From NCBI GenBank assembly GCA_017559885.1, contig JAFYQN010000160.1, positions 1 through 28,334 of the forward strand: a stretch of 28,334 nt of DNA. The letters run 5' to 3'. The notes under the pieces were generated by a model. The model worked only from the letters and a program-made list of their open reading frames with translations, did not search any database and was not told where the DNA came from. The translations under genes and the position numbers were made by a program. Of the stretch, positions 8,967-21,335 are shown one piece after another. Origin of the DNA: Clostridia bacterium. Its GTDB lineage: Bacteria; Bacillota; Clostridia; Oscillospirales; Acutalibacteraceae. Every line of letters starts with the position of its first letter. The stretch's first letter is position 1.

Positions 8967-9058
8967 AATCTGCGACAGATACCTTCGTCCCCTTGGTATT
9001 TGTGCGGTTTTAAATATGCCTTGGCGGTTTCTGCACTTCCGCCAATGGCGCCCACCAT
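8963..9058 (-). CDS. Candidate 31-aa small protein (MVGAIGGSAETAKAYLKPHKYQGDEGICRRF)
   Basis: ATG at 9058 preceded by GGGGATGAAT; stop overlaps the noc stop in TTAA; no homology recognised. Confidence 0.25.
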   Translation of the reverse strand: MVGAIGGSAETAKAYLKPHKYQGDEGICRRF

Positions 9059-9070
9059 ATTCATCCCCAT

Positions 9071-9107
9071 ACACAAACAACCTCTCGTAAAGAGAGGTTG
9101 TTTGTGT
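9071..9107. terminator. Bidirectional terminator/hairpin between noc and the glycosyltransferase operon
   Basis: Perfect 16-bp stem ACACAAACAACCTCTC/GAGAGGTTGTTTGTGT with GTAAA loop, touching the DUF2304 stop codon. Confidence 0.8.
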
Positions 9108-9469
9108 TATATTTCATTATTTTCTAAAATTTCTACTTCTTTTGTTTCGTTGTCTATCGCATATTTTTGCGCAAATTTGGTTTGCTTGTCCTCAAGTTTT
9201 GCAACGCGGGCATCGAGCAAAAAGATTTTAATAATCAACAAAAAGATTATTGTAACAAATATAAAGTTTGATGGAGATTCAAATCCGATGAATTCGGAAA
9301 GCCAGAATATTGGGGTTGGAAAAATGCTCATAACAAGCAAGAAAAGACTAAAAAACAGCCAATATAACGTATCGCCGATTTTAAACTGTGATTTTTTAAT
9401 TTTTCTAAACACAAAAGCCACCGTCAACACGCAACCGACAATCATTGCAATTAGTAATCCTGTGTTCAT
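9107..9469 (-). CDS. DUF2304 family small membrane protein (GacJ-like partner of polyprenyl-phosphate glycosyltransferases)
   Basis: 120 aa, three hydrophobic segments, SIFP..IFWLSEFIGFESPSNFIF, C-terminal coiled coil VAKLEDKQTKFAQKYAI; directly after the GT2. Confidence 0.82.
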   Translation of the reverse strand: MNTGLLIAMIVGCVLTVAFVFRKIKKSQFKIGDTLYWLFFSLFLLVMSIFPTPIFWLSEFIGFESPSNFIFVTIIFLLIIKIFLLDARVAKLEDKQTKFAQKYAIDNETKEVEILENNEI

Positions 9470-9472
9470 TTT

Positions 9473-10156
9473 TTACCCCTTTCTGAACCATTGTAATATG
9501 AGTATGGAAACAAACATCCTCATCATATAATTGGTTGCGTTTGAAAAGTTAAGATAACTTTGCCCTGCTACACGGTCGTGCATTTCTACCTGAATTTCAC
9601 TATACGTTGCGCCACCGCGCACAAGCAACGCTACCGTATCGGGTTCGGGTCCCAAATCGGTGGCAAAGGCAAGTTTTTTAATCATTTTTTTATCAAACAT
9701 ACGCATTCCTGACGTTGGGTCTTTTATCGTTTTACCCGTTGTCAATTTTATTGAAAGTTGTATGAGATTGCTACCCAACATACGAAGAGATACAGGTTTC
9801 TTTTTGTCAACAAAACGAGAACCTATTACTATGTTGTATCCCTTTTCCATCTCGCATGCCATATTATAAACGTAATCGGGGTCGTGTTGTCCGTCGCCGT
9901 CAAACTGTATAGCGGCATCATAACCGTTGTTATGGGCAAAAATCATACCCGTTTGCACCGCCGCGGCAAGACCAAGGTTTACTGGGTGACTTACATAATG
10001 ATAACCCTTTGCTTTGCAAATTGCTTCGGTATTGTCGGTAGAACCGTCGTTTACAATAATATAATCGTACTGTGGACAGTCTTTTTTAACGGTGTCAATT
10101 ACCCGTTCAATATTATCTTGTTCGTTGTATGCCGGAATAATAAGAAGAACGTTCAT
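9473..10156 (-). CDS. GT2 family polyprenyl-phosphate glycosyltransferase (DPM1/GacI-like)
   Basis: IIPAYNE, VNDGSTD, NLGLAAAVQTG, QFDGDGQHD (DxD), GSRF, DPTSGMR; start ATG 10156 with SD AAGGAG. Confidence 0.9.
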   Translation of the reverse strand: MNVLLIIPAYNEQDNIERVIDTVKKDCPQYDYIIVNDGSTDNTEAICKAKGYHYVSHPVNLGLAAAVQTGMIFAHNNGYDAAIQFDGDGQHDPDYVYNMACEMEKGYNIVIGSRFVDKKKPVSLRMLGSNLIQLSIKLTTGKTIKDPTSGMRMFDKKMIKKLAFATDLGPEPDTVALLVRGGATYSEIQVEMHDRVAGQSYLNFSNATNYMMRMFVSILILQWFRKG

Positions 10157-10170
10157 CTTATGGCTCCTTT

Positions 10171-11331
10171 TTATTTCACTAAACTTTCCAATTTTTTTGC
10201 AGTTGTTTCCCAGGTAAAGTCCTGTATTAAGCGTTGATAACATTTTTGTGTTGCGGCAAGGCGATAATCCTTGTCGGAAATCGCTTTTTGTAACGCCTGC
10301 GCGATTTTAGGCACCGCGTTATCGTTGATTAAAATACCCATACTATCATCGGTAATGAGTTCCTTTGCGCCGCCGACAGTTGTAGTTACAACAAAGTTTT
10401 TAAGCGCTACCGCCTCAAGAATAGAGGTGGGCAAACCTTCGGGATATACCGTAGGTAAGCAAAATATATCCGCCTCGCAAAGCAACGCTACAATGTGATT
10501 AAAATCAATTTTGCCAAGCATAATTATTCTATCGTTTTGGTCGGATACGGTTTTGATTTTTTCGCTTTGCTCTCCCTCGCCCGCAATAATTAAATATGCG
10601 TTACTGTCGCCCAAACTGTGAAACGCTTTTGCCAATTCGTAAGAGCCCTTTTCTTTAACGAGGCGACCTGTGTAGGTTATAACCGTCGCGTCTTTTGGTA
10701 TATTATACTCTTTTCTATAAGAAATTGTGTTTTCTTTTTCTAACTGTTTTATGTTATCAATGTCTATTGCGTTATAAAGCATACCCTTTGATTTAATTCC
10801 AAAATGTCCGCTCCAATCACACGCCGCTTGCGATACGCCGTAATAATCTTTACAGTATTTTTTTAGCACCCTCGTAAGACAGTGTTCGTAAATTGCGCCA
10901 AAAAAGTCCAACACTTTATTGTTGACCGACAAATGACTTGAACCGTGTTCGATGGTTATTGACGGAATATTGTTTTTATACGCAAATTTTGCCGCGTATA
11001 CGCTATGAATATAAAATCTTGCGTTTATAACCGCGATATCAAAATGCTTTTGACTAAGTTTTTTATCAAGTTCTTTAAATTCTTGGTTTTTCTTTAAGAT
11101 GGGATATCTGCCCTTCATAACGTTATAACAGGGCATACGGAAAATTTCTACCCCTTCGTTTGAAACCTCGTATCCAGGCAAATCAAAAACGTTAGAAGTA
11201 ACTATGGTTACGTCGTGACCAAAAGATACAAGTTGTTTCGCAAGATTATTTACGTATCTTTCAACGCCACCAAGGTTTGGTAAATAGTTTGCGCAAAACA
11301 AACAAATTGATTTTTTCATTTTTTCCACCAT
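10171..11331 (-). CDS. GT4 family (GT-B fold) glycosyltransferase
   Basis: YLPNLGGVERY, YTGRLVKEKG, IIAGEG, EGLPTSILEA (EX7E). Confidence 0.92.
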   Translation of the reverse strand: MVEKMKKSICLFCANYLPNLGGVERYVNNLAKQLVSFGHDVTIVTSNVFDLPGYEVSNEGVEIFRMPCYNVMKGRYPILKKNQEFKELDKKLSQKHFDIAVINARFYIHSVYAAKFAYKNNIPSITIEHGSSHLSVNNKVLDFFGAIYEHCLTRVLKKYCKDYYGVSQAACDWSGHFGIKSKGMLYNAIDIDNIKQLEKENTISYRKEYNIPKDATVITYTGRLVKEKGSYELAKAFHSLGDSNAYLIIAGEGEQSEKIKTVSDQNDRIIMLGKIDFNHIVALLCEADIFCLPTVYPEGLPTSILEAVALKNFVVTTTVGGAKELITDDSMGILINDNAVPKIAQALQKAISDKDYRLAATQKCYQRLIQDFTWETTAKKLESLVK

Positions 11332-14300
11332 TTATAACATTATTGTTACGATTTTTGAATAGATTTCAAGCATTACTACCGCCGACATTATCGCAAATAT
11401 TACACAACTGTATGCCGCCTTGTTTTTAAATATATTAAATCTTTTACCTGTAACAAGTAGCAACAGCGGCGCTAAAAGCGGTGTTAGATATCGCGGTTGA
11501 CAACCGTTTATGGTCGTAGCATTAAGCGGTGTAAAGTTTATATATAGCGCTGTAGCTATTACCGATGCCATACCAACAAAAAGCAATACCGCTAACCCTC
11601 TGATATAAAGGGGCGTTTTAAATCCGTATCGCTTGTTTGTGTCGGTCAAAGCGGTGAAACCTAATACTATTGCGGCAATAAACCAGTATTTTCCAAGTCC
11701 CAAATATCCAAAGTGAGAAATATATTCCTGCATACTGCCGATTGATAGATAGTCTAATAAAAACTTAAACAACAACTTTGCATAACCAAACGGAGCCGAG
11801 CGTATGCCTGCTAATTGAGCCGAGGGGTTTACGTCGCCGCCTCTAATATCTCCGGGTCCGCCAATTTTTGTTAGGGTTGTTATAACAAAGTATGCAACCA
11901 ACACCGAGAAAATGGTTACCAAAACGGCGTAGTAAGTACGTCGGTCGCTCTTTCTTGGCCAATTTTTCCTCATAAACAAGGTCATACCCATAAGAATAAT
12001 GTATACAAGTTTTGGCCAAGCGCCTACGGTAAACGACAATGCCATTATGATTGTGTCGGTAATTGTTATGGGTTTTTCGGGTTGTTGTAACTCGCTTACA
12101 AAATACGCCGTACCAAGCATTGTAAATGCCGTAACGCACCAGTCGTACGAGTAATTGGTTGCCAAAAATAGATTTGTTGGGAATAGACATATTACCGCAA
12201 GTATCATTTTACCCGTTTTGAGTTTCTTTATGGCAAAATAGCATACAAAGGAATACACCAACAAATACGCAAGTCTTCCGACGTTATACTTGACTGCAAA
12301 ACTTGCACCAAAAAATCTTGCCACTGCGATAAAAATTCCCGCAGGAATATGCGCGATTGATATATACGACTGTTGTTGCGCAACCAACGTTTCGTCTGCC
12401 GAATTAAGATATTCCAAATCTTCGTTGTATTTTTCGAGCGAAAAATCTACCAAACTTGTGCTTTGGCCAAGATGTTTGTCAACATTGTAGTCCGCGCCCG
12501 TTATGTACGCCGTATCCATATACGATGCCTGCACCGCCCAAGGATAGTGTGAGTCCAAATCCCACGCGATGTGTTTTATGGGTGAGCATAACAACATTAC
12601 AACGCCCAAAGTAAGCGCTATTGGTAAAAATACGTTTTCGGTCTTTTCGCGTAAATATTTACGTCCGCGTATAAAGACAACTACAAGTTCTGCAATACCT
12701 GCAAAAAATACAAATCTATATTTGTTAAAATCTCCCGGCAAGATACGGCTTATTATCATTTCAACAAGCATACCGCCAAGAATTGCCACTGCCGAAAATA
12801 CTATAAATTCGGCAATTTTTATTTTGTTTCGGGCAATTGTTCTAACTACTGCTTGGGTTGCCCACGTGCGTTTGTCAATAGCTCTTACAATAAGCGCAAT
12901 TATTACAGGGATTGCTATCGCTTTAAAATAATCGCCTGCCGTTTTTTCGACCTCAAAGGGCACCGACTCGGGTTGCGTTTCGTAAAGACCTACGTTTTTA
13001 AAGTAGATATCGTTTGTGTCGATATCAATACGCAAAAAATCGTACGAACCTTTTGGTATGTCTATAATAACGCTTGTTTCATCCTTAAATATACTGCTTG
13101 AGTAACATCTTTCCGCGCTAAATTGTCCGTCTTTGTATGCGGTATAAACTTCGATTGCAACTTCACCAACAGGTTGCTGGATAGCCACCTCTACACACTC
13201 TATTTCCCTGCCTTCGCAAGAAAAGATTATTTGTGGGTCAACGTCTGTTATTGTATATTTTCCCGATGCCTCTACCCTGCAACTGCGAAACGATTCGATT
13301 TGTGAAATCGATAAATTCTCAACAGGGTAACCAACCGGTTTTAAAACATTGCCAACGTTTTTAGGCAAAAAGATTGATACGCACACCAACAGTGACAACG
13401 CAAACGAAAGAACTGTTGCCACTATGGTATATCTTTCTTTTTTGATAACTTCGTCCAACAGGTCTACTTGTGGTTTTTTTAACTGCAATAAAAACAGTGA
13501 GAACATAACCGCAAAAAGCACTGCCATTTCACAAAGGTATGATAGCGCCGCGCCTGTAAGTCCCCAACGCGAAACCATTGCATCGGGCGCAACAAGAGCA
13601 AAAAGCATTGTCACAACATAAGCAATAAGACATAATTTTTGCTTGCGCATTGTGGTAAATAAAGTTAATGTCAAGGTGCTTGCCGCGCTTAATCCGCCTG
13701 CAAATAAAAGCGTTATAAATATTGTCTTTTTATCTGAAAGTTCGGCTTTGTATAACATTTCAAGTACGGGTATGCCCAGAAAATACCCCGCAACCATTGC
13801 CGCGATTGTTAAAACGACTACCCAACCGTAAAGTTTTGATACAATCTTTTTAAACTCGTCTATACGGTTTTCTGCCCAACTTTTAGAAAGTTTTATAAGT
13901 TGCGGACGAAAAGCAAAAATGCTTAAAAGGTTTATTGCAAACACAGGCATTACAAGATATCCGTAATGCGCTTGGTCGGTTTTGGTTAGCGCGTTTTCAA
14001 TTGCGTATTTAGGCGAATTAAAAATAAACTGATGCATAAACGACGATGCAAAAAGCGGTAACGCGCACAACAAAATACCCTTTTGCTCGGAAAGTTTAAA
14101 CGACGGTTTAAACGACCCAAAATTGTTGCTTAGCGGTATATCGTGCAATAAAATCCAAACCAAAACAACTATCGGCATGGTAAGCGTCGCGATAAAAAGT
14201 TGCTTTGTTATAACAAGCGTTATCGAAAATACAATTGCCGTAATAGCCGTTTGACACGCAAGCGACCTACCCGCAATGCTTAAATAACCGTTTCTGTGAA

Positions 14301-14709
14301 GGTTGCCTTGGAACAAATCAGAAATTGCCGCAAGCATCATATAAACCGAAATAACAAGCATAACCTTTACGGTTTCCTTATCAAAACCTTTAAAGGTAGC
14401 AAACGCGCCAAAAAATGCCCACATTGCCGCTATGGTAATAACTCTAAACATCGAAATGCTTTCAAACGACATCTCGCGTTTTGCGTCGGTTACCTGAATG
14501 TTACGCATTTCAAAAACGCAAATGGTATACATCATTTGCGCGGTTGAATACGCAAGCGAAAAAACACCTGCCGCATCGCTTCCTACGATATGACTTACGA
14601 CAATCATCAACAACAACGACACAGTAGCATTGGTTAAGCTACCCAGCATATTAAATATAAAATTTTTCTTTTCTGAAGTTTGTGGTAATCTATAAGCAAA
14701 TTTTTTCAT
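11332..14709 (-). CDS. Fusion protein: Wzx-type flippase + extracytoplasmic beta-rich domain + DUF2142 (GT-C-like) membrane domain
   Basis: Residues about 1-410 form a 12-14 TM Wzx pattern (NFIFNMLGSL, GVFSLAYS, FIFNSPKYAI, WGLTGAALS); soluble segment at about 13360-12930; C-terminal multi-TM domain with WDLDSHY, NLFLATNYSYDW, GCQPRYLTP resembling DUF2142; start ATG 14709 with SD GAGGTG. Confidence 0.75.
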   Translation of the reverse strand: MKKFAYRLPQTSEKKNFIFNMLGSLTNATVSLLLMIVVSHIVGSDAAGVFSLAYSTAQMMYTICVFEMRNIQVTDAKREMSFESISMFRVITIAAMWAFFGAFATFKGFDKETVKVMLVISVYMMLAAISDLFQGNLHRNGYLSIAGRSLACQTAITAIVFSITLVITKQLFIATLTMPIVVLVWILLHDIPLSNNFGSFKPSFKLSEQKGILLCALPLFASSFMHQFIFNSPKYAIENALTKTDQAHYGYLVMPVFAINLLSIFAFRPQLIKLSKSWAENRIDEFKKIVSKLYGWVVVLTIAAMVAGYFLGIPVLEMLYKAELSDKKTIFITLLFAGGLSAASTLTLTLFTTMRKQKLCLIAYVVTMLFALVAPDAMVSRWGLTGAALSYLCEMAVLFAVMFSLFLLQLKKPQVDLLDEVIKKERYTIVATVLSFALSLLVCVSIFLPKNVGNVLKPVGYPVENLSISQIESFRSCRVEASGKYTITDVDPQIIFSCEGREIECVEVAIQQPVGEVAIEVYTAYKDGQFSAERCYSSSIFKDETSVIIDIPKGSYDFLRIDIDTNDIYFKNVGLYETQPESVPFEVEKTAGDYFKAIAIPVIIALIVRAIDKRTWATQAVVRTIARNKIKIAEFIVFSAVAILGGMLVEMIISRILPGDFNKYRFVFFAGIAELVVVFIRGRKYLREKTENVFLPIALTLGVVMLLCSPIKHIAWDLDSHYPWAVQASYMDTAYITGADYNVDKHLGQSTSLVDFSLEKYNEDLEYLNSADETLVAQQQSYISIAHIPAGIFIAVARFFGASFAVKYNVGRLAYLLVYSFVCYFAIKKLKTGKMILAVICLFPTNLFLATNYSYDWCVTAFTMLGTAYFVSELQQPEKPITITDTIIMALSFTVGAWPKLVYIILMGMTLFMRKNWPRKSDRRTYYAVLVTIFSVLVAYFVITTLTKIGGPGDIRGGDVNPSAQLAGIRSAPFGYAKLLFKFLLDYLSIGSMQEYISHFGYLGLGKYWFIAAIVLGFTALTDTNKRYGFKTPLYIRGLAVLLFVGMASVIATALYINFTPLNATTINGCQPRYLTPLLAPLLLLVTGKRFNIFKNKAAYSCVIFAIMSAVVMLEIYSKIVTIML

Positions 14710-14745
14710 ACGCACCTCTTCTAACCGCACGCTATAATTCATTTT

Positions 14746-14774
14746 ATTATACCACATATAATTGCTTTTTTCAA
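14746..14774 (-). promoter_or_regulatory. Sigma-A-type promoter for the flippase/GT-C-GT4-GT2-DUF2304 operon
   Basis: Minus strand TTGAAA (14774-14769), 17 bp, TATAAT (14751-14746), with extended -10 TG. Confidence 0.82.
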
Positions 14775-14798
14775 TAATTAATCACAGCTTTACCTTTG

Positions 14799-14827
14799 TT
14801 GACAAAACAATCAATATTAGTTATAAT
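14799..14827 (+). promoter_or_regulatory. Perfect-consensus sigma-A promoter for the licD-cytidylyltransferase/PLP enzyme-opine dehydrogenase operon
   Basis: TTGACA (14799-14804), 17 bp, TATAAT (14822-14827). Confidence 0.88.
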
Positions 14828-14860
14828 TATTATGTATGAACTTTATTGGAGATGATTGTT

Positions 14861-15718
14861 TTGTCAGGTCAATACGAGCCCGAAGTTTTAAAAAAATTAC
14901 AACTTTGCGAACTTGAAATTTTAAAAGATTTTATAACCGTTTGCAAAGAAAACAATCTTACCTATTTTGGTTTTGGCGGTACCGGTATCGGCGCTTTGCG
15001 ACACGGCGGTTTTATACCGTGGGATGACGACATTGACCTTGCTGTTCCGCGTGACGACTATAACACCGCTATGGAAATATTCCGTCGCGATTTTGCCGAC
15101 AAATACACCGTTGTTAACGCGCAAAATTATAATGATTTTCCCGTTATGAACACCCACATTATAATCAACGACTCAAAGTTTGTTACAAAAGAAGAACTTG
15201 GCGCAAAATATCCAAAAGGTATTTTTCTTGATATATTCCCCGTCGACAACGTGCCCGACGACCCAAAGGAGCGCGACAAACATCTTAAAAAGACGTGGAT
15301 TTTAAGCAAAATATTTATTATGAAACATATCCCGTTTCCACACGTGCCTTTTAAAGGTGCAACCGCAAAACTTGCCCACTGTGTAACGGCGATGATTTGG
15401 TTGTTTTTAAACGTTTTTTGCGTTTCGCATAAATTTTTATACAAACTTTGCTTTAACCAATGCGTCAAATACAACAACACCGACACCAACTACTACGCGT
15501 ATTGTTGCGGTTCAAAGTTGTGCGGCAACGTTTTTGATAAAAAGCAACTTTACCCGTTAAAAGATATTGATTTCGAAAATATTCCAATCTCTTTTCCAAA
15601 TAATTTAGATGACATCTTAACTGCAGAATACGGCAATTTTATGCAGATACCCCCTCCCGAAAAGCAAAAAAATCACCGTCCCGAAATTTTAGTTTTTCCA
15701 AATGAACAAAACAAATAA
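14861..15718 (+). CDS. LicD family phosphotransferase (CDP-alcohol-phosphate to glycan)
   Basis: LQLCELEIL, GTGIGALRHGGFIPWDDDIDL, IFLDIFPVD, LTAEYGNFMQIPP; likely start TTG 14861 after SD GGAGATGAT (ORF track starts at 14846). Confidence 0.92.
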   Translation: MSGQYEPEVLKKLQLCELEILKDFITVCKENNLTYFGFGGTGIGALRHGGFIPWDDDIDLAVPRDDYNTAMEIFRRDFADKYTVVNAQNYNDFPVMNTHIIINDSKFVTKEELGAKYPKGIFLDIFPVDNVPDDPKERDKHLKKTWILSKIFIMKHIPFPHVPFKGATAKLAHCVTAMIWLFLNVFCVSHKFLYKLCFNQCVKYNNTDTNYYAYCCGSKLCGNVFDKKQLYPLKDIDFENIPISFPNNLDDILTAEYGNFMQIPPPEKQKNHRPEILVFPNEQNK

Positions 15719-15730
15719 AGGAGCGTCAAT

Positions 15731-17539
15731 ATGCAAGCACTTATTTTAGCGGCAGGAATGGGCAAACGCCTTAAAGAACTAACCCAAGACAACACCAAAT
15801 GTATGGTTAAAATTAACGGCGTTACGTTAATAGAGCGTATGCTTCGTCAGATAGATAAGCACAACCTTTCAAAAATTGTTATTGTTATTGGTTACGAAGG
15901 CCAAAAACTTATCGACTATATCGCTACGCTTAAAAATATTAAAACCCCTATCGTATACGTGAATAATCCTATATACGACAAAACAAACAACATCTATTCT
16001 CTTTCTCTTGCGCAGGATTATCTTTGCGAAGAAGATACCCTTTTGTTTGAATCGGATCTTATTTTTGAGGATAGCATTATCGATTTATTACTCAACGACC
16101 CTCGCCCATCGCTTGCGCTTGTTGACAAGTACGAAAGTTGGATGGATGGCACCTGTCTTAAAATTGACGAGCAAGATAATATTACCGCCTTTATTCCGGG
16201 CAAAAACTTTAAATACAGCGAAAAAGACGAGTACTACAAAACCGTAAATATTTATAAGTTTAGTAAAAACTTTTCAAAAAACAGTTATGTTCCTTTCCTT
16301 AACGCTTATATAAAGGCGCTTGGCGAAAACGAATATTATGAACAGGTTCTTCGCGTTATCACAATGCTTGATAACCCCGAAATAAAAGCAGAGCGCCTTA
16401 CAGGTCAACTTTGGTACGAAACCGATGATATTCAAGACCTTGATATCGCGTCCTCTATGTTCCACCCTGACGATGACGAAAAAGTTGCCGCTTTACAGCG
16501 CAGGTTTGGCGGATATTGGCGCTATCCTAAATTGCTTGATTTTTGCTATCTTGTAAACCCATATTTTCCACCGCAACGACTTATGGACGAAATCAAAGCG
16601 AATTTTGAAACGCTTATAACCCAGTATCCAAGCGGTATGGGTGTAAACTCACTTCTTGCGGCAAAGAATTTTGATATTCATCAGCAAAACATTGTCGTAG
16701 GTAACGGCGCCGCCGAACTTATTAAATCGTTTATGGAAATGCAAAACGGAAAAATTGGTTTTGCGCGTCCTACTTTTGAGGAATATCCAAACCGTTACAC
16801 AAAAGAAAACTCGGTTGTTTTTGTGCCAAGCAACAAGGATTTTTCATATAGCGCCGACGATTTAATGGAATTTTTTGGCGATAAAGACATTAAAACACTT
16901 GTGGTTATTAATCCCGATAACCCATCAGGCAACTATATTCCAAAGCGTGACCTTTTACGTCTTGTTGATTGGTCAAAAGAAAAGGGTGTAAAACTTGTTA
17001 TTGATGAATCGTTTGTTGATTTTTCAGTTTGTGAAGATTCTACAATCATATTGCAGGACGTTTTAGATAATAACAAACATCTCTATGTTGTAAAAAGCAT
17101 TTCAAAATCTTATGGCGTACCCGGTATTCGCCTTGGTATACTTGCAAGCGGTGACGTCGAAACCATTGCCGTTATTAAAAAAGACGTTGCAATCTGGAAC
17201 ATAAACTCCTTTGGCGAATTTTATATGCAGATTGCCGAAAAGTATAAAAAAGATTATGCCCAAGCGCTTGTTAAATTCCGCGATGAACGTAACCGTTTCT
17301 TAAACGAACTAAATGCAATCAAAGGCATTCGCGTTATTCCTTCGCAGGCAAACTACTTTATGGTAGAACTTACCGGCGGTATTACAGCAAAAGAACTTAC
17401 CAAAAAAATGCTTATAATATACGATATACTTATAAAAGACCTCTCAACAAAGGTAGATGGTCAGTATATTAGAATTGCGATTCGTTCAAAAGAAGACAAT
17501 GACCGATTAATCGACGCGTTTAAAGCAGAAATTTTTTAA
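15731..17539 (+). CDS. Bifunctional LicC/PntC-like cytidylyltransferase + HisC/CobD-like class I/II PLP enzyme
   Basis: N-terminus ALILAAGMGKRL, TNNIYSL, ESDLIF, WYETDDIQDL; C-terminus LLDFCYLVNPYFP, GNGAAELI, NPDNPSG, IDESF, SISKSYGVPGIRLG (PLP Lys). Confidence 0.85.
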   Translation: MQALILAAGMGKRLKELTQDNTKCMVKINGVTLIERMLRQIDKHNLSKIVIVIGYEGQKLIDYIATLKNIKTPIVYVNNPIYDKTNNIYSLSLAQDYLCEEDTLLFESDLIFEDSIIDLLLNDPRPSLALVDKYESWMDGTCLKIDEQDNITAFIPGKNFKYSEKDEYYKTVNIYKFSKNFSKNSYVPFLNAYIKALGENEYYEQVLRVITMLDNPEIKAERLTGQLWYETDDIQDLDIASSMFHPDDDEKVAALQRRFGGYWRYPKLLDFCYLVNPYFPPQRLMDEIKANFETLITQYPSGMGVNSLLAAKNFDIHQQNIVVGNGAAELIKSFMEMQNGKIGFARPTFEEYPNRYTKENSVVFVPSNKDFSYSADDLMEFFGDKDIKTLVVINPDNPSGNYIPKRDLLRLVDWSKEKGVKLVIDESFVDFSVCEDSTIILQDVLDNNKHLYVVKSISKSYGVPGIRLGILASGDVETIAVIKKDVAIWNINSFGEFYMQIAEKYKKDYAQALVKFRDERNRFLNELNAIKGIRVIPSQANYFMVELTGGITAKELTKKMLIIYDILIKDLSTKVDGQYIRIAIRSKEDNDRLIDAFKAEIF

Positions 17540-17557
17540 TTCCGAAGGGATAAAAAG

Positions 17558-18637
17558 ATGAACATTACTATTGTTGGCGCAGGAAATATTGGCACACAAA
17601 TCGCCGTTCACTGCGCATCAAAAGGGCATAAAGTAATAATTTATACTTCAAAGTGCGACCTGTTTTCCAAAGATTTAAAAATAGTCAACGAACTTGGCGA
17701 AACCTTTTTAAGCGGTGAAATTGATTGCGCTACTTGTGATGCACCTCACGCTTTTTGTAATGCTGACCTTGTTTTTGTAACCGTTCCTGCCTTTTATATG
17801 CAAGACACTGCCAAAGTTATGTCACCACATTTAAAACGCGGCGCCAAAATATGCTTGGTGCCTGGTACGGGAGGCGGTGAATTTGCCTTTAAAGATGCCA
17901 TAGATAACGGTTGCGTATTGTTTGGTTTGCAACGCGTGCCAAGTGTTGCGCGACTTGTAGAGTATGGCAAAACAGTGTGCGCTACGGGCTATCGCGACGA
18001 GTTGTTCGCGGCGGCAATCCCCGACTCTTTTTCGAGTGAGTGCGCCAAGATTATAGCAAGCATTTTTGATATGAAATGTAGCGAATTGCCGTCATATCTT
18101 AATATAACGCTCACGCCGTCAAATCCTATTTTGCACACAACCCGACTAAAAACTATTTTTGGCGATTACACCGATGGTAAAACATACGATAGCGTACCGC
18201 TTTTTTATGAGGGATGGACCGACGAGTCCTCTCGACTTTTGCTTGCGTGTGACGACGAAGTGCAAAATATTTGTAAAGCGCTTGATATGTTTAATTTATC
18301 TTTTGTGAAATCTTTAAAAATTCACTACGAAAGCGAAAATGCCGAGCAACTAACAAACAAAATAACAAGCATTAAAAGTTTTAAAGGACTTAAAACCCCA
18401 AGCGTTAAGACCGCAGACGGCTACGCTCCCGATTTGAACTCGCGTTATTTTACCGCAGATTTTTCTTACGGACTTGAAATTCTTATTCAGATTGCCGATT
18501 TTTTAAATTTGCCTTGTCCTTTTATGAAATCTACTATGGACTGGTACAATAAAATCGCGCTGCAAAAAAACCGTTTTTGTTTTGCCGATTACGGTATAAA
18601 TAATCTTGATGATTTTATAAATTTTTATCAACAATAA
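17558..18637 (+). CDS. NAD(P)-dependent opine (octopine/nopaline-type) dehydrogenase family protein
   Basis: Rossmann ITIVGAGNIG, SNPILHTTRL, PLFYEGW, SRYFTADFSYGL (Octopine_DH-like C-terminal motif); 359 aa. Confidence 0.8.
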   Translation: MNITIVGAGNIGTQIAVHCASKGHKVIIYTSKCDLFSKDLKIVNELGETFLSGEIDCATCDAPHAFCNADLVFVTVPAFYMQDTAKVMSPHLKRGAKICLVPGTGGGEFAFKDAIDNGCVLFGLQRVPSVARLVEYGKTVCATGYRDELFAAAIPDSFSSECAKIIASIFDMKCSELPSYLNITLTPSNPILHTTRLKTIFGDYTDGKTYDSVPLFYEGWTDESSRLLLACDDEVQNICKALDMFNLSFVKSLKIHYESENAEQLTNKITSIKSFKGLKTPSVKTADGYAPDLNSRYFTADFSYGLEILIQIADFLNLPCPFMKSTMDWYNKIALQKNRFCFADYGINNLDDFINFYQQ

Positions 18638-18677
18638 AAATTACCCCGAATCACAAACGTGACTCGGGGTGTTTTTT
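18636..18677. terminator. Bidirectional intrinsic terminator between convergent genes
   Basis: ACCCCGA-A-TCAC-AAAC-GTGA-C-TCGGGGT stem (18643-18670), A-run on the left and T-run on the right. Confidence 0.85.
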
Positions 18678-19536
18678 ATTCATCTTGAGGTTCTTCTGTC
18701 GGCTTTGTTTTTTTACCGAGATAATCCTCTTGCTTTTTTAGCGAGTTGTGCATTAGGTCGGATATTTTATCGCCAATGTCGACCGTATGACTGTTGTCTG
18801 CAGTATCTATTACGTCTATAATTTCAAAATAGATGTCGGTTCTACGGCGAAGCAAATTTTTGGGTATCTGTTTTGTGCCCCAAAGTGTGCAAACCACAAT
18901 TTTTGACTGCGATTTGGTAGCGATTTTTAACGCGCCGTTGCGTATAGGCAACAACTCACCGCTTTTGCTAACGTATCCTTCGGGGAAAATAGCTACCGAG
19001 TTGGTCTTGTCTTTAATAAGACGCGTCGCATTAATTATGGTTTTTGCCGCTTCGCGATTGTTTTCACGGTCTATTAACTGTCCGCTTAACTTATGTAACG
19101 CTTTATAAATAAAAGGATATATCTCACGAAGTTCCTTTTTTGCTATAAAGGCAATTCGTGAATCAGGCACTGCATAGTAAATTATTGCAGGGTCAAGGTC
19201 ATGTATGTGGTTACTTACCAATAAAAACGGTTCGCCCTGCGGTATTTTTTCACTACCTGTTATATGCACCTTTACTCTAAGTATGGGAAATGCCATTTCC
19301 AAAAAGCCCTTTACCAAAAGGCGAAAGAAATCGGTATCTCGCGGAGGTTTATTTAAATTTACAGTCATTATGTTAAGAGCAAATACCGCCACGTGTAAAG
19401 CAATTAACGCAACAAAGGTTGCTACCAATATAACGGGTACCAACCACCACGAATAAGACTGCCCGAAAATGTTAAACGGGATATCAAGCAACAGCGTTAT
19501 AACCGCCGCTATAATAGCGTAAATTTTAAATGTCAT
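18676..19536 (-). CDS. PlsC-family (lysophospholipid) acyltransferase with two N-terminal TM helices
   Basis: NHIHDLD (HX4D), FIAKKEL, FPEG; start ATG 19536 with SD GAGAGG. Confidence 0.85.
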   Translation of the reverse strand: MTFKIYAIIAAVITLLLDIPFNIFGQSYSWWLVPVILVATFVALIALHVAVFALNIMTVNLNKPPRDTDFFRLLVKGFLEMAFPILRVKVHITGSEKIPQGEPFLLVSNHIHDLDPAIIYYAVPDSRIAFIAKKELREIYPFIYKALHKLSGQLIDRENNREAAKTIINATRLIKDKTNSVAIFPEGYVSKSGELLPIRNGALKIATKSQSKIVVCTLWGTKQIPKNLLRRRTDIYFEIIDVIDTADNSHTVDIGDKISDLMHNSLKKQEDYLGKKTKPTEEPQDE

Positions 19537-19546
19537 TTTTTGCCTC

Positions 19547-19729
19547 TCAGTTCTGTTTTTGCACAATTTTATACTCGTCATAAAAATTATAATACGGACA
19601 ATTATAAACCTGCGACGTCAAAAATCGTGACATTTCATCTTCATCAAGACGACAGTCGCAAAAATACTCGTCGTATTCCGCGTCGTATATATAATTGGCG
19701 CAAGTTTCACAATTTGTGCTTCTTTTCAC
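19547..19729 (-). CDS. Small Cys/Tyr/acid-rich protein, DUF6472-like (60 aa)
   Basis: GTG at 19729 with SD GGAGG; NCETCANYIYDAEYDEYFCDCRLDEDEMSRFL..CPYY..DEYKIVQKQN. The longer ORF-track version merely reads through the LCP tail in another frame. Confidence 0.78.
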   Translation of the reverse strand: MKRSTNCETCANYIYDAEYDEYFCDCRLDEDEMSRFLTSQVYNCPYYNFYDEYKIVQKQN

Positions 19730-19745
19730 GACTGGTCCTCCTTTG

Positions 19746-21335
19746 TTATGCTGCCGGTTCTTGCTCTGTTGGTTGTGATTCGGGGTCTTCACTCGATGTG
19801 GATTCTTCACTGCTTGAAGATTCATCGTCCGACGAATCTTGTTCGTCAGAAGTATCATCCGAGGTTGTATCTCCCGACGAGGTTTCTTCGTCCTCGCTTG
19901 TGGTGTCATCGCTTGATGTGTCGTCACTCGAGGTATCGTCGCTTGACGTGTCGTCACTTGACGTGTCGTCAGGTTGCTCGCTCTCTATTGGTTCTTCGCT
20001 TGAATTTTGCTGTTGCGATGAGTTTGACGGATAACGTTTTCCGCCCATATCGCTATACCAATCGTTGTTTTCTATGGGATTTTCTTCAATAAACTGTTCG
20101 ATTGTTACGTCGTCATATATAACCGCGTTAATAAGTTTTTCGGCGTAATCAAGGTCGTAATAAATTACCGAGCCGTATCCCGATGGAGCCGTCATCAAAA
20201 AGTCGCTTTGGTATTCTGACGGTGGCAAACGATACTGTTCAAAAGACGGCGAGCCCAGTAGCACGCTTGTTGCAAGACTGAGTATGTCGCCATAAGAAAG
20301 TGAGGTTTCAGTGCATGGAATAAGCGCCTTGATAAGTTCGGGATATTGCGATTTGCTCATTGAGGTTGCCTTGTTAAATAGTCCTTGCATAACGTGGCGT
20401 TGACGATCGGTACGACCATAGTCGTTGTTGGTGCCCCAAACATTGCGACAATAACGCACACGCGAATAAGCAACCGCTTGAACACCGTTAAGAACGTGGT
20501 CGCCTGCGGTATGAATGTAATAATCTTTAGGGTCAAGACCCATCTCTTTACATATTTCATCCATACAGTTGTTAAGATTTGGTCGGTCGTTACCCTTCCA
20601 GGTAAGTTCATCTTGAGTTATGGTGGCAGGGATACCGCCAACCGCGTCAATTATATCTACCATTCCGTAGAAATTAACGGTTGCATACTCGGATATATCC
20701 AAACCAAACGCCTGATTTAAAGTTTTAATTGCGTGCTCGGGACCTTTTGTGTACGCCGAGTTAATCTTGCCAAAATAACTTTTTCCTTCATACTCCATAG
20801 GAACAAGGGTGTCACGCATAATAGAAAAGATTTTTATCTTTTTGGTCTTGGTATTAATACTTAAAATCATAATACTGTCGGTGTTGCCGCTAAAAATTTC
20901 TTCGTCGCGTGAGTCAACACCAAAAAGCGCTACGTTAACAACGTTTTTATCTATTATGTCGGTGTAACCAAGGTCACCTGAAATATCGCGATGATTAAGT
21001 CCAAAAAGGGCAATAATCGCCGAGAATATTGGCGATAAGATTGGCGCTATAAATATAACAAACGCAAGAATCAGCGCAATAAGCGATGTTGCAGAAATAC
21101 TTACAAAAGCGATTTTTTTACCGCTTGTAAGAGCGTTCCACCAACCCTTGATGCCGCGAGATTTTTTCTTGTATACACTATTTGAACTTATATCTTCAAA
21201 TTTAATATTGCCGTCTTGATAACTTGAATCCGAAACGATATCTTCATAAGTTTCTTCATCCTTTTTTTGCATTGCGGCGATAATATCTTCGTATTTTTCG
21301 TTAAAATTTAAATCAAAATTATCCTTTTTATCCAT
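19746..21335 (-). CDS. LCP (LytR-CpsA-Psr) family glycopolymer-peptidoglycan phosphotransferase with acidic Ser/Thr/Asp tail
   Basis: TM helix, ALFGVDSR, GNTDSIMI, SIMRDT, KINSAY, LNGVQAVAYSRVR, DYGRTDRQR. Confidence 0.93.
   Translation of the reverse strand: MDKKDNFDLNFNEKYEDIIAAMQKKDEETYEDIVSDSSYQDGNIKFEDISSNSVYKKKSRGIKGWWNALTSGKKIAFVSISATSLIALILAFVIFIAPILSPIFSAIIALFGLNHRDISGDLGYTDIIDKNVVNVALFGVDSRDEEIFSGNTDSIMILSINTKTKKIKIFSIMRDTLVPMEYEGKSYFGKINSAYTKGPEHAIKTLNQAFGLDISEYATVNFYGMVDIIDAVGGIPATITQDELTWKGNDRPNLNNCMDEICKEMGLDPKDYYIHTAGDHVLNGVQAVAYSRVRYCRNVWGTNNDYGRTDRQRHVMQGLFNKATSMSKSQYPELIKALIPCTETSLSYGDILSLATSVLLGSPSFEQYRLPPSEYQSDFLMTAPSGYGSVIYYDLDYAEKLINAVIYDDVTIEQFIEENPIENNDWYSDMGGKRYPSNSSQQQNSSEEPIESEQPDDTSSDDTSSDDTSSDDTSSDDTTSEDEETSSGDTTSDDTSDEQDSSDDESSSSEESTSSEDPESQPTEQEPAA
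19903..19971 (-). repeat. Degenerate 15-bp tandem repeat (about 4.6 copies) encoding (DDTSS)n in the LCP tail
   Basis: Plus-strand units GTGTCATCGCTTGAT, GTGTCGTCACTCGAG, GTATCGTCGCTTGAC, GTGTCGTCACTTGAC, GTGTCGTCA. Confidence 0.85.

Follow-up and report, generated by a model that had tools for sequence, protein, structure and literature searches.

The DNA analysed here, called the window, is a stretch of 28,334 nucleotides (contig JAFYQN010000160.1, positions 1 to 28,334, assembly GCA_017559885.1) from a Clostridia bacterium of the family Acutalibacteraceae. Between positions 9,071 and 18,670 it carries seven genes arranged in two compact divergent operons, with intergenic gaps of 0-18 nt within the operons, and our analysis confirms that this two-operon locus is real and conserved. 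The best overall explanation, to which we give a probability of about 0.5, is that the locus adds variable side-chain decorations, with an opine-type head group, to a wall-anchored polysaccharide. The host is a metagenome-assembled genome of 1.44 Mb in 210 contigs (completeness 86%), and its closest named relatives are Acutalibacteraceae and 'uncultured Ruminococcus' genomes from animal guts. The original prediction, made from the letters of the window, had described a divergent seven-gene module, and all seven of its domain calls were upheld. The features are listed below with corrected gene starts; the left operon (left arm) is on the - strand and the right operon (right arm) on the + strand.

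9071..9107, no strand: 16-bp hairpin between parB (+) and the DUF2304 gene (-); dG -26.3 kcal/mol, z -7.6
9107..9469, - strand: DUF2304 small membrane protein (GacJ / Rv3632 type), predicted partner of the GT2; PF10066, 3e-26
9473..10156, - strand: GT2 glycosyltransferase, 227 aa, polyprenyl-phosphate sugar synthase type (GacI / PpgS-like); PF00535, 2e-28
10171..11331, - strand: GT4 glycosyltransferase, cytoplasmic, NDP-sugar dependent; PF00534/PF13439, TuaC-like but below cut-off
11332..13446, - strand: transmembrane (TM) helix, domain resembling a carbohydrate-binding module (CBM) and DUF2142 GT-C core, residues 422-1125 of a 1125-aa protein; PF09913, 4e-32
13447..13467, - strand: linker VDLLDEV, 7 residues, replacing the stop codon, Shine-Dalgarno site and start codon of relatives
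13468..14709, - strand: Wzx-type MOP flippase, 12 helices, residues 1-414 of the 1125-aa protein; assigned by fold
14746..14774, - strand: left operon promoter, TTGAAA-17-TG-TATAAT, 11/12 plus TG extension; hexamers invariant in 6 species
14799..14827, + strand: right operon promoter, TTGACA-17-TATAAT, 12/12; hexamers invariant in 6 species
14861..15718, + strand: LicD-family phosphotransferase, motif WDDDID; PF04991, 7.5e-42
15731..17539, + strand: bifunctional nucleotidyltransferase-pyridoxal phosphate (PLP) enzyme, 602 aa, hereafter the fusion enzyme; Pfam, NCBIfam and PDB comparison
17558..18637, + strand: Octopine_DH-family NAD(P) enzyme, His193/Arg296/Asp301; PF02317, 2e-30
18643..18670, no strand: bidirectional intrinsic terminator; dG -21.2 kcal/mol, z -6.5, T6 tail on the + strand

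The predicted head-group genes are exchanged at a single locus

In a sample of 121 genomes of the genus, the locus between parB and the acyltransferase gene was found in at least seven other species. It occurs in four versions:

Version 1: LicD, fusion enzyme and Octopine_DH (window, G008, G071, L005)
Version 2: LicD, fusion enzyme and an OCD/mu-crystallin protein (G003, G086)
Version 3: LicD, an IspD-like cytidylyltransferase and a nearby short-chain dehydrogenase/reductase, a CDP-polyol-like, CDP-ribitol-like pair (G077, L107:6544-8275)
Version 4: LicD alone, with no fusion or Octopine_DH gene (G074, L106)

The LicD gene lies opposite Wzx in all seven sister-species loci examined, six of which are complete. 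The head-group cassette is exchangeable, since the partner genes differ at the same locus while LicD stays opposite Wzx. Genes for the orthologous flippase are present in 11 of the 121 genomes and those for the fusion enzyme in 7. A check of co-occurrence had been proposed for the two arms, and it found them together in five of these genomes, at the same locus, with partial combinations in two other families.

The protein encoded exactly at the Octopine_DH position in G003 and G086 is a 313-aa OCD/mu-crystallin protein. Its best PDB match is SbnB (4m54), followed by pyrroline-2-carboxylate reductase, archaeal alanine dehydrogenase, ketimine reductase and CmnK. Members of this family act on C-N bonds, alkylaminate 2-oxo acids and include sponge opine dehydrogenases (PMC8446579). 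Identity is 87-89% for the fusion enzyme with either partner, Octopine_DH or OCD, and 70-74% for LicD. Elsewhere in the genus, a further locus again combines the fusion enzyme and OCD, here with a TagF-like enzyme. The use of OCD in place of Octopine_DH, at orthologous as well as unrelated loci, is a non-orthologous displacement between two families predicted to reduce imines. The OCD gene was observed directly 3' of the fusion gene at L015:8939-9880 (- strand, G003), L016 (G086), L019:11697-12659, L058 and L089.

The Octopine_DH protein of the window scores 106 bits, compared with a threshold of 30, and 39 bits with NAD_Gly3P_dh_N. In alignments with octopine dehydrogenase (OcDH, 3c7a) and CENDH (1bg6), its His193, Arg296 and Asp301 fall on the catalytic residues, whose roles in OcDH are known, and of 125 family representatives 121-124 retain this triad. 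The common ground of the Octopine_DH and OCD families is the reduction of an imine formed between an amine and a 2-oxo acid. Reductive condensation of these two substrates by the Octopine_DH protein is a prediction that the OCD displacement backs indirectly.

Octopine_DH domains also occur in other fusions. A 597-aa protein at L024:6001-7794 carries Octopine_DH fused to an Asp/Glu racemase domain, in a capsule-like locus that also holds a sulfotransferase, a HAD hydrolase, an IspD-like cytidylyltransferase and a MurJ-like flippase. The ESM Atlas has a cluster in which 71 Bacteroidota proteins, each about 597 aa long, combine Octopine_DH and LicD in one chain.

LicD and the fusion enzyme

The LicD protein scores 144 bits (Pfam threshold 22.6) and has the DxD motif. 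It is Mf1-like, below the cut-off, with a weak PDB match to FKRP, and it is the only LicD found in the host genome.

The fusion enzyme consists of a PntC/LicC-like nucleotidyltransferase (residues 1 to about 255) followed by a fold-type-I PLP enzyme of the CobD/SMUL_1544 group (about 265 to 602), with the PLP lysine in the motif SISKSYG. The nucleotidyltransferase domain matches PntC (6pd1) with 64 bits (8e-17), compared with 42 bits for LicC. The PLP domain matches 6oux with 163 bits, CobD (1lc5) with 100 and the verified HisC 8bj1 with 92, so that 6oux leads the other structures by about 55-70 bits. Among NCBIfam models, it scores 166.9 bits with CobD (TIGR01140) and 144 with HisC (TIGR01141), a difference of 23 bits, and its PLP-lysine, Asp and Asn motifs align with CobD/SMUL_1544. 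By these comparisons the PLP domain appears closer to the decarboxylases than to the HisC transaminases; it was not filed as CobD because it lies below the equivalog cut-off. The molecule name given in the 6oux entry is 'threonine phosphate decarboxylase-like enzyme'; we take this protein to be SMUL_1544, whose annotation matches that name (PMC7755780). SMUL_1544 converts L-serine O-phosphate to ethanolamine phosphate for norcobamides.

The host genome encodes SerC and there is no kinase gene at the locus, and phosphoserine would therefore be the simplest substrate of the PLP domain. A function as CobD in cobamide synthesis was considered and rejected, because of the nucleotidyltransferase fusion partner and the glycan context. 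Neither Ppm nor Ppd genes are present in the window, which argues for a phosphate ester rather than a phosphonate as the product. The description of the right arm as a line made of a CDP donor and LicD, with an amino-acid-derived head group as its likeliest product, thus agrees with what had been proposed from the sequence.

A GacI/GacJ-type left arm

The GT2 protein has no TM helices; its top PDB matches are ArnC, DPMS and GtrB, and its best NCBIfam match, PpgS, reaches 101 bits, far below the curated cut-off of 370. The DUF2304 gene is separated from the GT2 gene by 3 nt, and its product is 73-80% identical to those of sister loci. In the GacI/PpgS design, the DUF2304 partner supplies the membrane contact for a GT2 that lacks TM helices. 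The DUF2304/GT2 pair is predicted to be a polyprenyl-phosphate sugar synthase of the GacI/GacJ type. The trio of GT4, GT2 and DUF2304 genes was found again in L075. A GacI/J/K/L-like line with an extra GT4 had been proposed for the left arm, and its content is borne out by families and folds.

A flippase and a GT-C enzyme joined in one polypeptide

The large protein of the left arm starts with a flippase that is invisible to a Pfam scan of the whole 1125-aa protein, in which no flippase match was obtained. When the N-terminal part was scanned alone, PF01943 (Polysacc_synt) gave 25.2 bits, below the gathering threshold of 28.2, as for a divergent member. The AlphaFold2 model of residues 1-414 has a predicted local distance difference test score (pLDDT) of 91, and its best structural match is WzxE (9g9n, TM-score 0.77/0.79), which ranks ahead of MurJ and MATE. 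Residues 1-414 match stand-alone proteins of about 415 aa, and the 120 homologs listed are stand-alone too, nearly all of about 400-460 aa. The earlier guess of a Wzx is thus upheld by the fold and by these homologs.

Residues 422-1125 comprise one TM helix, an extracytoplasmic CBM32/CBM6-like beta-sandwich (about 454-584), more helices and the GT-C core, and they align over their full length with stand-alone DUF2142 proteins of about 710 aa. The AlphaFold2 model (704 residues) has a pLDDT of 90. A Foldseek search of the PDB with this model yielded no clear GT-C match; a wide VIA-align search did. The matches of the DUF2142 model were ALG12 (Z 17.2), Pmt4 (14.3), Pmt1/2 (14.1), AftB (13.3) and ArnT (12.3), and AglB was also matched; the beta-sandwich matched CBM32 with Z about 10-11. 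All the best matches of the membrane domain are GT-C enzymes that use polyprenyl-phosphate sugars, so that the assignment of DUF2142 to GT-C, already made in the original prediction, is shown by the fold. The motif W716-D717-x-D719-x-H721 is nearly invariant, as WDxDxH, in 46 homologs. From the order of helices in the model, we infer that it lies in the first extracytoplasmic loop.

The flippase and GT-C genes are separate in all five sister loci that hold both, and the sixth contig ends inside Wzx. In relatives the two genes are parted by a stop codon, a GGAGG site and an ATG; at this junction the window has an unrelated 21-nt linker. A database search found no other protein of the fused length (1125 aa). 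The fusion therefore appears to be unique to this genome, and is not the feature of the system that a single fused protein had been taken for. The possibility of a sequencing artefact or one-base error was rejected, because a different sequence takes the place of stop codon, Shine-Dalgarno site and start codon alike and because a Logan contig of the source run, made with a second assembler, has the identical sequence at the junction. The junction was seen in the source run only and was absent from independent samples.

The GT-C part (11332-13446) is by far the most variable gene of the locus, 46-53% identical where detected (L005, L015, L017 and L018 compared), and L017 and L106 have a different DUF2142, of 650 aa. 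Identity to L005 is only about 30-34% in the CBM-like domain and the N-terminal helices, compared with 56% in the GT-C core. These comparisons suggest that there may be exchange of, or diversifying pressure on, the exposed part of the GT-C.

Promoters, terminators and gene starts

The original prediction placed near-perfect back-to-back promoters between the operons and a strong hairpin at the end of each. Both statements hold. In our scan, the total number of promoter-like sites in 10 kb was at chance level (32 observed, compared with 29.7 in shuffled sequences); the two operon promoters are the top two of the 32 and stand on opposite strands of the 150-nt gap that separates the operons. When this gap was aligned across six species of the genus, neither the -35 and -10 hexamers of the two promoters nor the two Shine-Dalgarno sites and start codons showed any change, while the spacers drift. 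We judge the two promoters to be real because of this invariance amid varying spacers, and because of their position in the gap.

The 9071-9107 hairpin has a T tail on the + strand only, where it serves parB, and shares 1 nt with the stop codon of DUF2304. The canonical terminator at 18643-18670 is common to the right operon and to the convergent acyltransferase gene.

Three gene starts were corrected from alignment with relatives and promoter positions. The large gene starts at ATG 14709 (1125 aa) and not at the listed 14757, which was discarded because it lies upstream of the gene's own -10 hexamer. LicD starts at TTG 14861, which is ATG in one sister species. The GT2 gene starts at ATG 10156, Met30 of the listed open reading frame (ORF), and this gives 227 aa, the same length as in relatives including L005.

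Neighbouring genes

The locus is flanked on the left by mnmE-mnmG-rsmG-parB, and on the right by genes for a PlsC-like acyltransferase and an LCP ligase, then rsmI, cysS and recA. The acyltransferase gene and the gene for the 529-aa LCP ligase lie directly downstream (18676-21335, - strand), and their synteny is conserved in every sister locus; relatives carry a 61-aa DUF6472 gene between the two. A 176-aa ORF antisense to DUF2304 (9000-9530, + strand) has no family match and is probably spurious, not a gene. The rml genes of the host are on a different contig. The locus had been called self-contained; this is too strong, as the acceptor polymer is encoded elsewhere.

Distribution of the fusion enzyme beyond the genus

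At least 565 species genomes encode a relative of the fusion enzyme; most belong to gut or rumen Clostridia and some to Treponemataceae, Coriobacteriales and Selenomonadales, and the protein stays 66-89% identical across phyla. Cultured carriers include Butyrivibrio sp. AE3009 (LicD, fusion enzyme and OCD), Anaerotaenia torta DSM 100431 and Lachnospira eligens (fusion enzyme only). Gene neighbourhoods were surveyed within a radius of 6 kb in 79 species loci, taken from the best 80 of the at least 565 fusion-enzyme genomes. Octopine_DH was present in 29 loci and OCD in 13 (either one in 39), LicD in 27 and a TagF-like transferase in 15 (either one in 41), and DUF2142 in only 4. The right arm is thus a portable cassette, most surveyed loci having no DUF2304 or DUF2142 within this distance. 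The pair of fusion enzyme and Octopine_DH is still together, in an actinobacterial context, at 31% Octopine_DH identity. Two loci are independent partial unions of both arms: L054 (TagF-like, fusion enzyme, GT2, DUF2304 and GT-C) and L075 (LicD, Octopine_DH, fusion enzyme, GT4, GT2 and DUF2304).

Several other genes were observed near the fusion gene. At L019:13916-16684, just after the fusion, OCD and TagF-like genes, lies a gene for a 922-aa protein with a YidC-like 60KD_IMP and an LtaS-type sulfatase domain. A conserved trio at L040:13917-18182 and L086:3578-7873 encodes a nucleotidyltransferase of 301-306 aa (E 1e-64 to the N-terminal half of the fusion enzyme), a protein of about 525 aa and one of about 585 aa, the last with a match of about 1e-31 to the fusion enzyme; this trio is a candidate second cassette, possibly for a phosphonate. 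In L053, L062, L067, L072, L074 and L076 (several Saccharofermentans, Clostridiales), the fusion gene is flanked by genes for proteins of about 870-930 aa, with a TagF-like match nearby and no Octopine_DH, OCD or LicD.

Proposed pathway

The pathway we propose builds on what was observed, namely the genes present, their folds and catalytic motifs, the conserved promoters and the swapped cassettes; all its substrates, the sequence of its steps and the link between the two arms are conjectural. On the cytoplasmic face, the GT2 with its DUF2304 partner would make a polyprenyl-monophosphate sugar, to which the GT4 would probably add a second sugar. In the right arm, the PLP domain would decarboxylate O-phospho-L-serine (or O-phospho-L-threonine) to ethanolamine phosphate (or aminopropanol phosphate), and the fused nucleotidyltransferase would activate this amino-alcohol phosphate with CTP, the most likely product being CDP-ethanolamine from phosphoserine. 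The Octopine_DH enzyme, at some point in this sequence, would reductively condense the primary amine with a 2-oxo acid (e.g. pyruvate), yielding an N-(1-carboxyalkyl)amino-alcohol phosphate; the predicted head group would thus be the CDP-activated form of this compound. LicD would then transfer the head group from the CDP donor to a lipid-linked glycan facing the cytoplasm, most simply the product of the left arm. A lipid-linked mono- or disaccharide is the simplest acceptor for LicD because CDP donors are only cytoplasmic and because LicD always faces the flippase gene. The Wzx domain would flip the lipid-linked glycan, and the GT-C domain, fused to Wzx and carrying the CBM-like module, would transfer it to an acceptor polymer outside the membrane. 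The rml genes and the neighbouring LCP ligase suggest a rhamnose-containing polymer as the acceptor. The predicted chemistry has precedents: N-[(R)-1-carboxyethyl]ethanolamine phosphate is found in the O-polysaccharide of Proteus mirabilis (PMC9630907), CDP-ethanolamine is accepted by a LicD-family enzyme, Mf1 (PMC11982090), and PntC, which activates 2-aminoethylphosphonate, is fused to an amine-forming PLP enzyme, a transaminase (PMC6697681).

Alternative explanations

Several observations weigh against this proposal. About half of the 79 surveyed fusion-enzyme loci have neither Octopine_DH nor OCD, so that the fusion enzyme alone is enough for some product, and in three loci (L040, L103 and L078) both are present together, so that they are not strictly interchangeable. 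The fusion enzyme is found without the left arm in most genomes, and the left arm without the fusion enzyme in 6 of the 11 genus genomes that have it. The hairpin of the left operon lacks a U tract on its own (-) strand, where it is a bare hairpin. Some Octopine_DH relatives adjoin a stand-alone nucleotidyltransferase and a TagF-like gene, with no PLP enzyme (L021, L022), a layout that resembles the pneumococcal gtp/CDP-2-glycerol genes, in which Gtp1 is a reductase. The last observation and the loci devoid of both partners would fit a plain amino-alcohol or polyol phosphate head group, with Octopine_DH or OCD an ordinary reductase that supplies or recycles a precursor, either Gtp1-like (dihydroxyacetone to glycerol) or an amino-acid dehydrogenase, and with no N-carboxyalkyl group on the glycan. 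The N-terminal domain of Octopine_DH also matches the glycerol-3-phosphate dehydrogenase and ketopantoate reductase folds. However, the carboxylate-binding Arg and the His-Asp pair are kept in nearly all relatives (the 121-124 of 125 given above), there is no Gtp3-type kinase or phosphotransferase at the locus, and all known members of the family that replaces Octopine_DH at the same position act on C-N bonds of 2-oxo or amino acids (PMC8446579). We therefore regard a plain head group as unlikely.

Doubt about the PLP domain bears on the origin of the amine, the other steps being unchanged. HisC and CobD are sister families and the PLP domain scores below both curated cut-offs (290.55 for CobD), so that it could instead act as a transaminase and form the amino-alcohol phosphate out of a keto-phosphate; serinol phosphate derived from dihydroxyacetone phosphate would be one example. 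Serinol phosphate is made by such a transamination in Campylobacter jejuni. The PntC fusion carries a transaminase (PMC6697681). Set against this are the score for 6oux, about 70 bits above that for verified HisC, and the 23-bit advantage of the CobD model over the HisC model, and we consider a transaminase quite improbable.

The coupling of the two arms is drawn from synteny alone. The arms could instead serve different polymers, LicD acting on an undecaprenyl diphosphate (Und-PP)-linked main chain or teichoic acid and the left arm adding a neutral sugar side chain, in which case their adjacency would reflect shared regulation or a shared variable region. Pneumococcal LicD enzymes do have Und-PP-linked teichoic acid precursors as substrates; fusion, opine-type and LicD genes are mostly found in Wzx/Wzy-type or TagF-type loci devoid of DUF2304 and DUF2142, and the left arm also exists without the fusion enzyme. 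However, LicD faces Wzx under the conserved divergent promoters in 7/7 sister loci, whichever cassette is present, and no second LicD was found in the host genome. Furthermore, the fusion enzyme and the GT2-DUF2304 pair have been combined independently in L054 and L075, with a GT-C as well in L054. Separate polymers are rather unlikely in our view, and action of LicD on the lipid-linked glycan of the left arm is the reading we retain.

Relation to known systems

The left arm resembles the GacI/J/K/L line of Streptococcus pyogenes and the mycobacterial PpgS/Rv3632/Rv3779 line in its TM-less GT2 with DUF2304, Wzx-type flippase and GT-C acting outside; in these lines the GT-C transfers from a lipid monophosphate outside the cell. 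It differs from them by the extra GT4, by a flippase and GT-C in one polypeptide, by the CBM32/6-like module and by the LicD operon opposite. In the Wps (PSP) pathway of L. lactis, in Csd three-component glycosylation and in the decoration of the enterococcal polysaccharide antigen (EPA), an undecaprenyl phosphate (Und-P)-sugar started by a GacI/J-like pair is extended by cytoplasmic glycosyltransferases, flipped and put on rhamnan by a GT-C, and both phosphodiester and teichoic-acid-like decorations occur. L. lactis was the only control genome to match both DUF2142 and LicD. No nucleotidyltransferase/PLP fusion or opine-type dehydrogenase is known in the Wps/Csd/EPA loci, whereas both are present here.

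The right arm shares with LicC/LicD and with Mf1 of Mycoplasma fermentans the LicD-family transfer of a CDP-activated alcohol phosphate. Unlike LicC/LicD, it has no choline kinase or transporter, the alcohol phosphate being proposed to come from the PLP enzyme fused to the cytidylyltransferase. The PntC-AEPT protein (Tde1415, PDB 6PD1/6PD2) is likewise a fusion of an amine-forming PLP enzyme with a LicC-like cytidylyltransferase, with LicD-like genes in its loci (PMC6697681); the PLP domain described here, however, is class I/II and CobD-like instead of a class V AEP transaminase, and the order of domains is reversed. The best structural relatives of the PLP domain are CobD, an L-threonine-O-3-phosphate decarboxylase, and SMUL_1544 of Sulfurospirillum multivorans; it differs from CobD by its setting outside cobamide synthesis, by its nucleotidyltransferase partner and by its score below the equivalog cut-off.

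The Octopine_DH protein shares its fold and catalytic His/Arg/Asp with Pecten OcDH and Arthrobacter CENDH. The OCD protein that replaces it in sister loci belongs to the same family as SbnB and the sponge tauropine dehydrogenase, and tauropine is the sulfonate analogue of the proposed product. Unlike in known opine dehydrogenases, the proposed amine is a phosphorylated or CDP-linked amino alcohol and not an amino acid, and the genes lie in surface-glycan operons. The Proteus mirabilis compound is exactly the predicted type of head group; it belongs to a Gram-negative O antigen, and the likeness is one of chemistry only (PMC9630907).

The idea of a candidate new system is too strong, since pathways of Und-P-sugar, flippase and GT-C, as well as LicD decorations, are already known. 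Side chains that are extended as Und-P-linked oligosaccharides before flipping are already known from the L. lactis Wps system. The left arm and the LicD decoration are of known kinds; the new elements are the head-group cassette, with its alternating opine-type partners, and the flippase/GT-C in a single polypeptide. The literature that we searched contained no description of a nucleotidyltransferase-PLP/opine-type/LicD cassette.

Significance for surface glycans of gut bacteria

We propose tentatively, at somewhat less than even odds, that wall or capsular glycans of gut and rumen Firmicutes, and of some Actinobacteria, spirochaetes and Bacteroidota, are decorated with opine-phosphates through an undescribed cassette. 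The same tentative estimate covers, jointly, the composition of this cassette, namely a putative Ser-P/Thr-P decarboxylase-cytidylyltransferase fusion and either of two unrelated imine reducers, with installation by LicD or TagF-like enzymes. If opine-phosphate decoration does occur, the Wzx-GT-C fusion would be Rosetta-stone evidence that flipping and extracellular transfer are physically coupled, a suggestion included in that joint estimate.

How host lectins, pentraxins, antibodies and phages recognise bacterial glycans is influenced by charged and zwitterionic phosphodiesters, phosphocholine and phosphoethanolamine among them. If the proposal is true, an overlooked class of head groups is made, with no imported precursor, in hundreds of gut and rumen species including cultured ones. 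It would also provide genes for N-(1-carboxyethyl)ethanolamine phosphate, known chemically in Proteus, and would assign a function to a large set of proteins annotated as 'aminotransferase class I/II'. With four head-group variants at the same chromosomal site in one genus, the locus provides a natural test of how head groups are exchanged on surface glycans.

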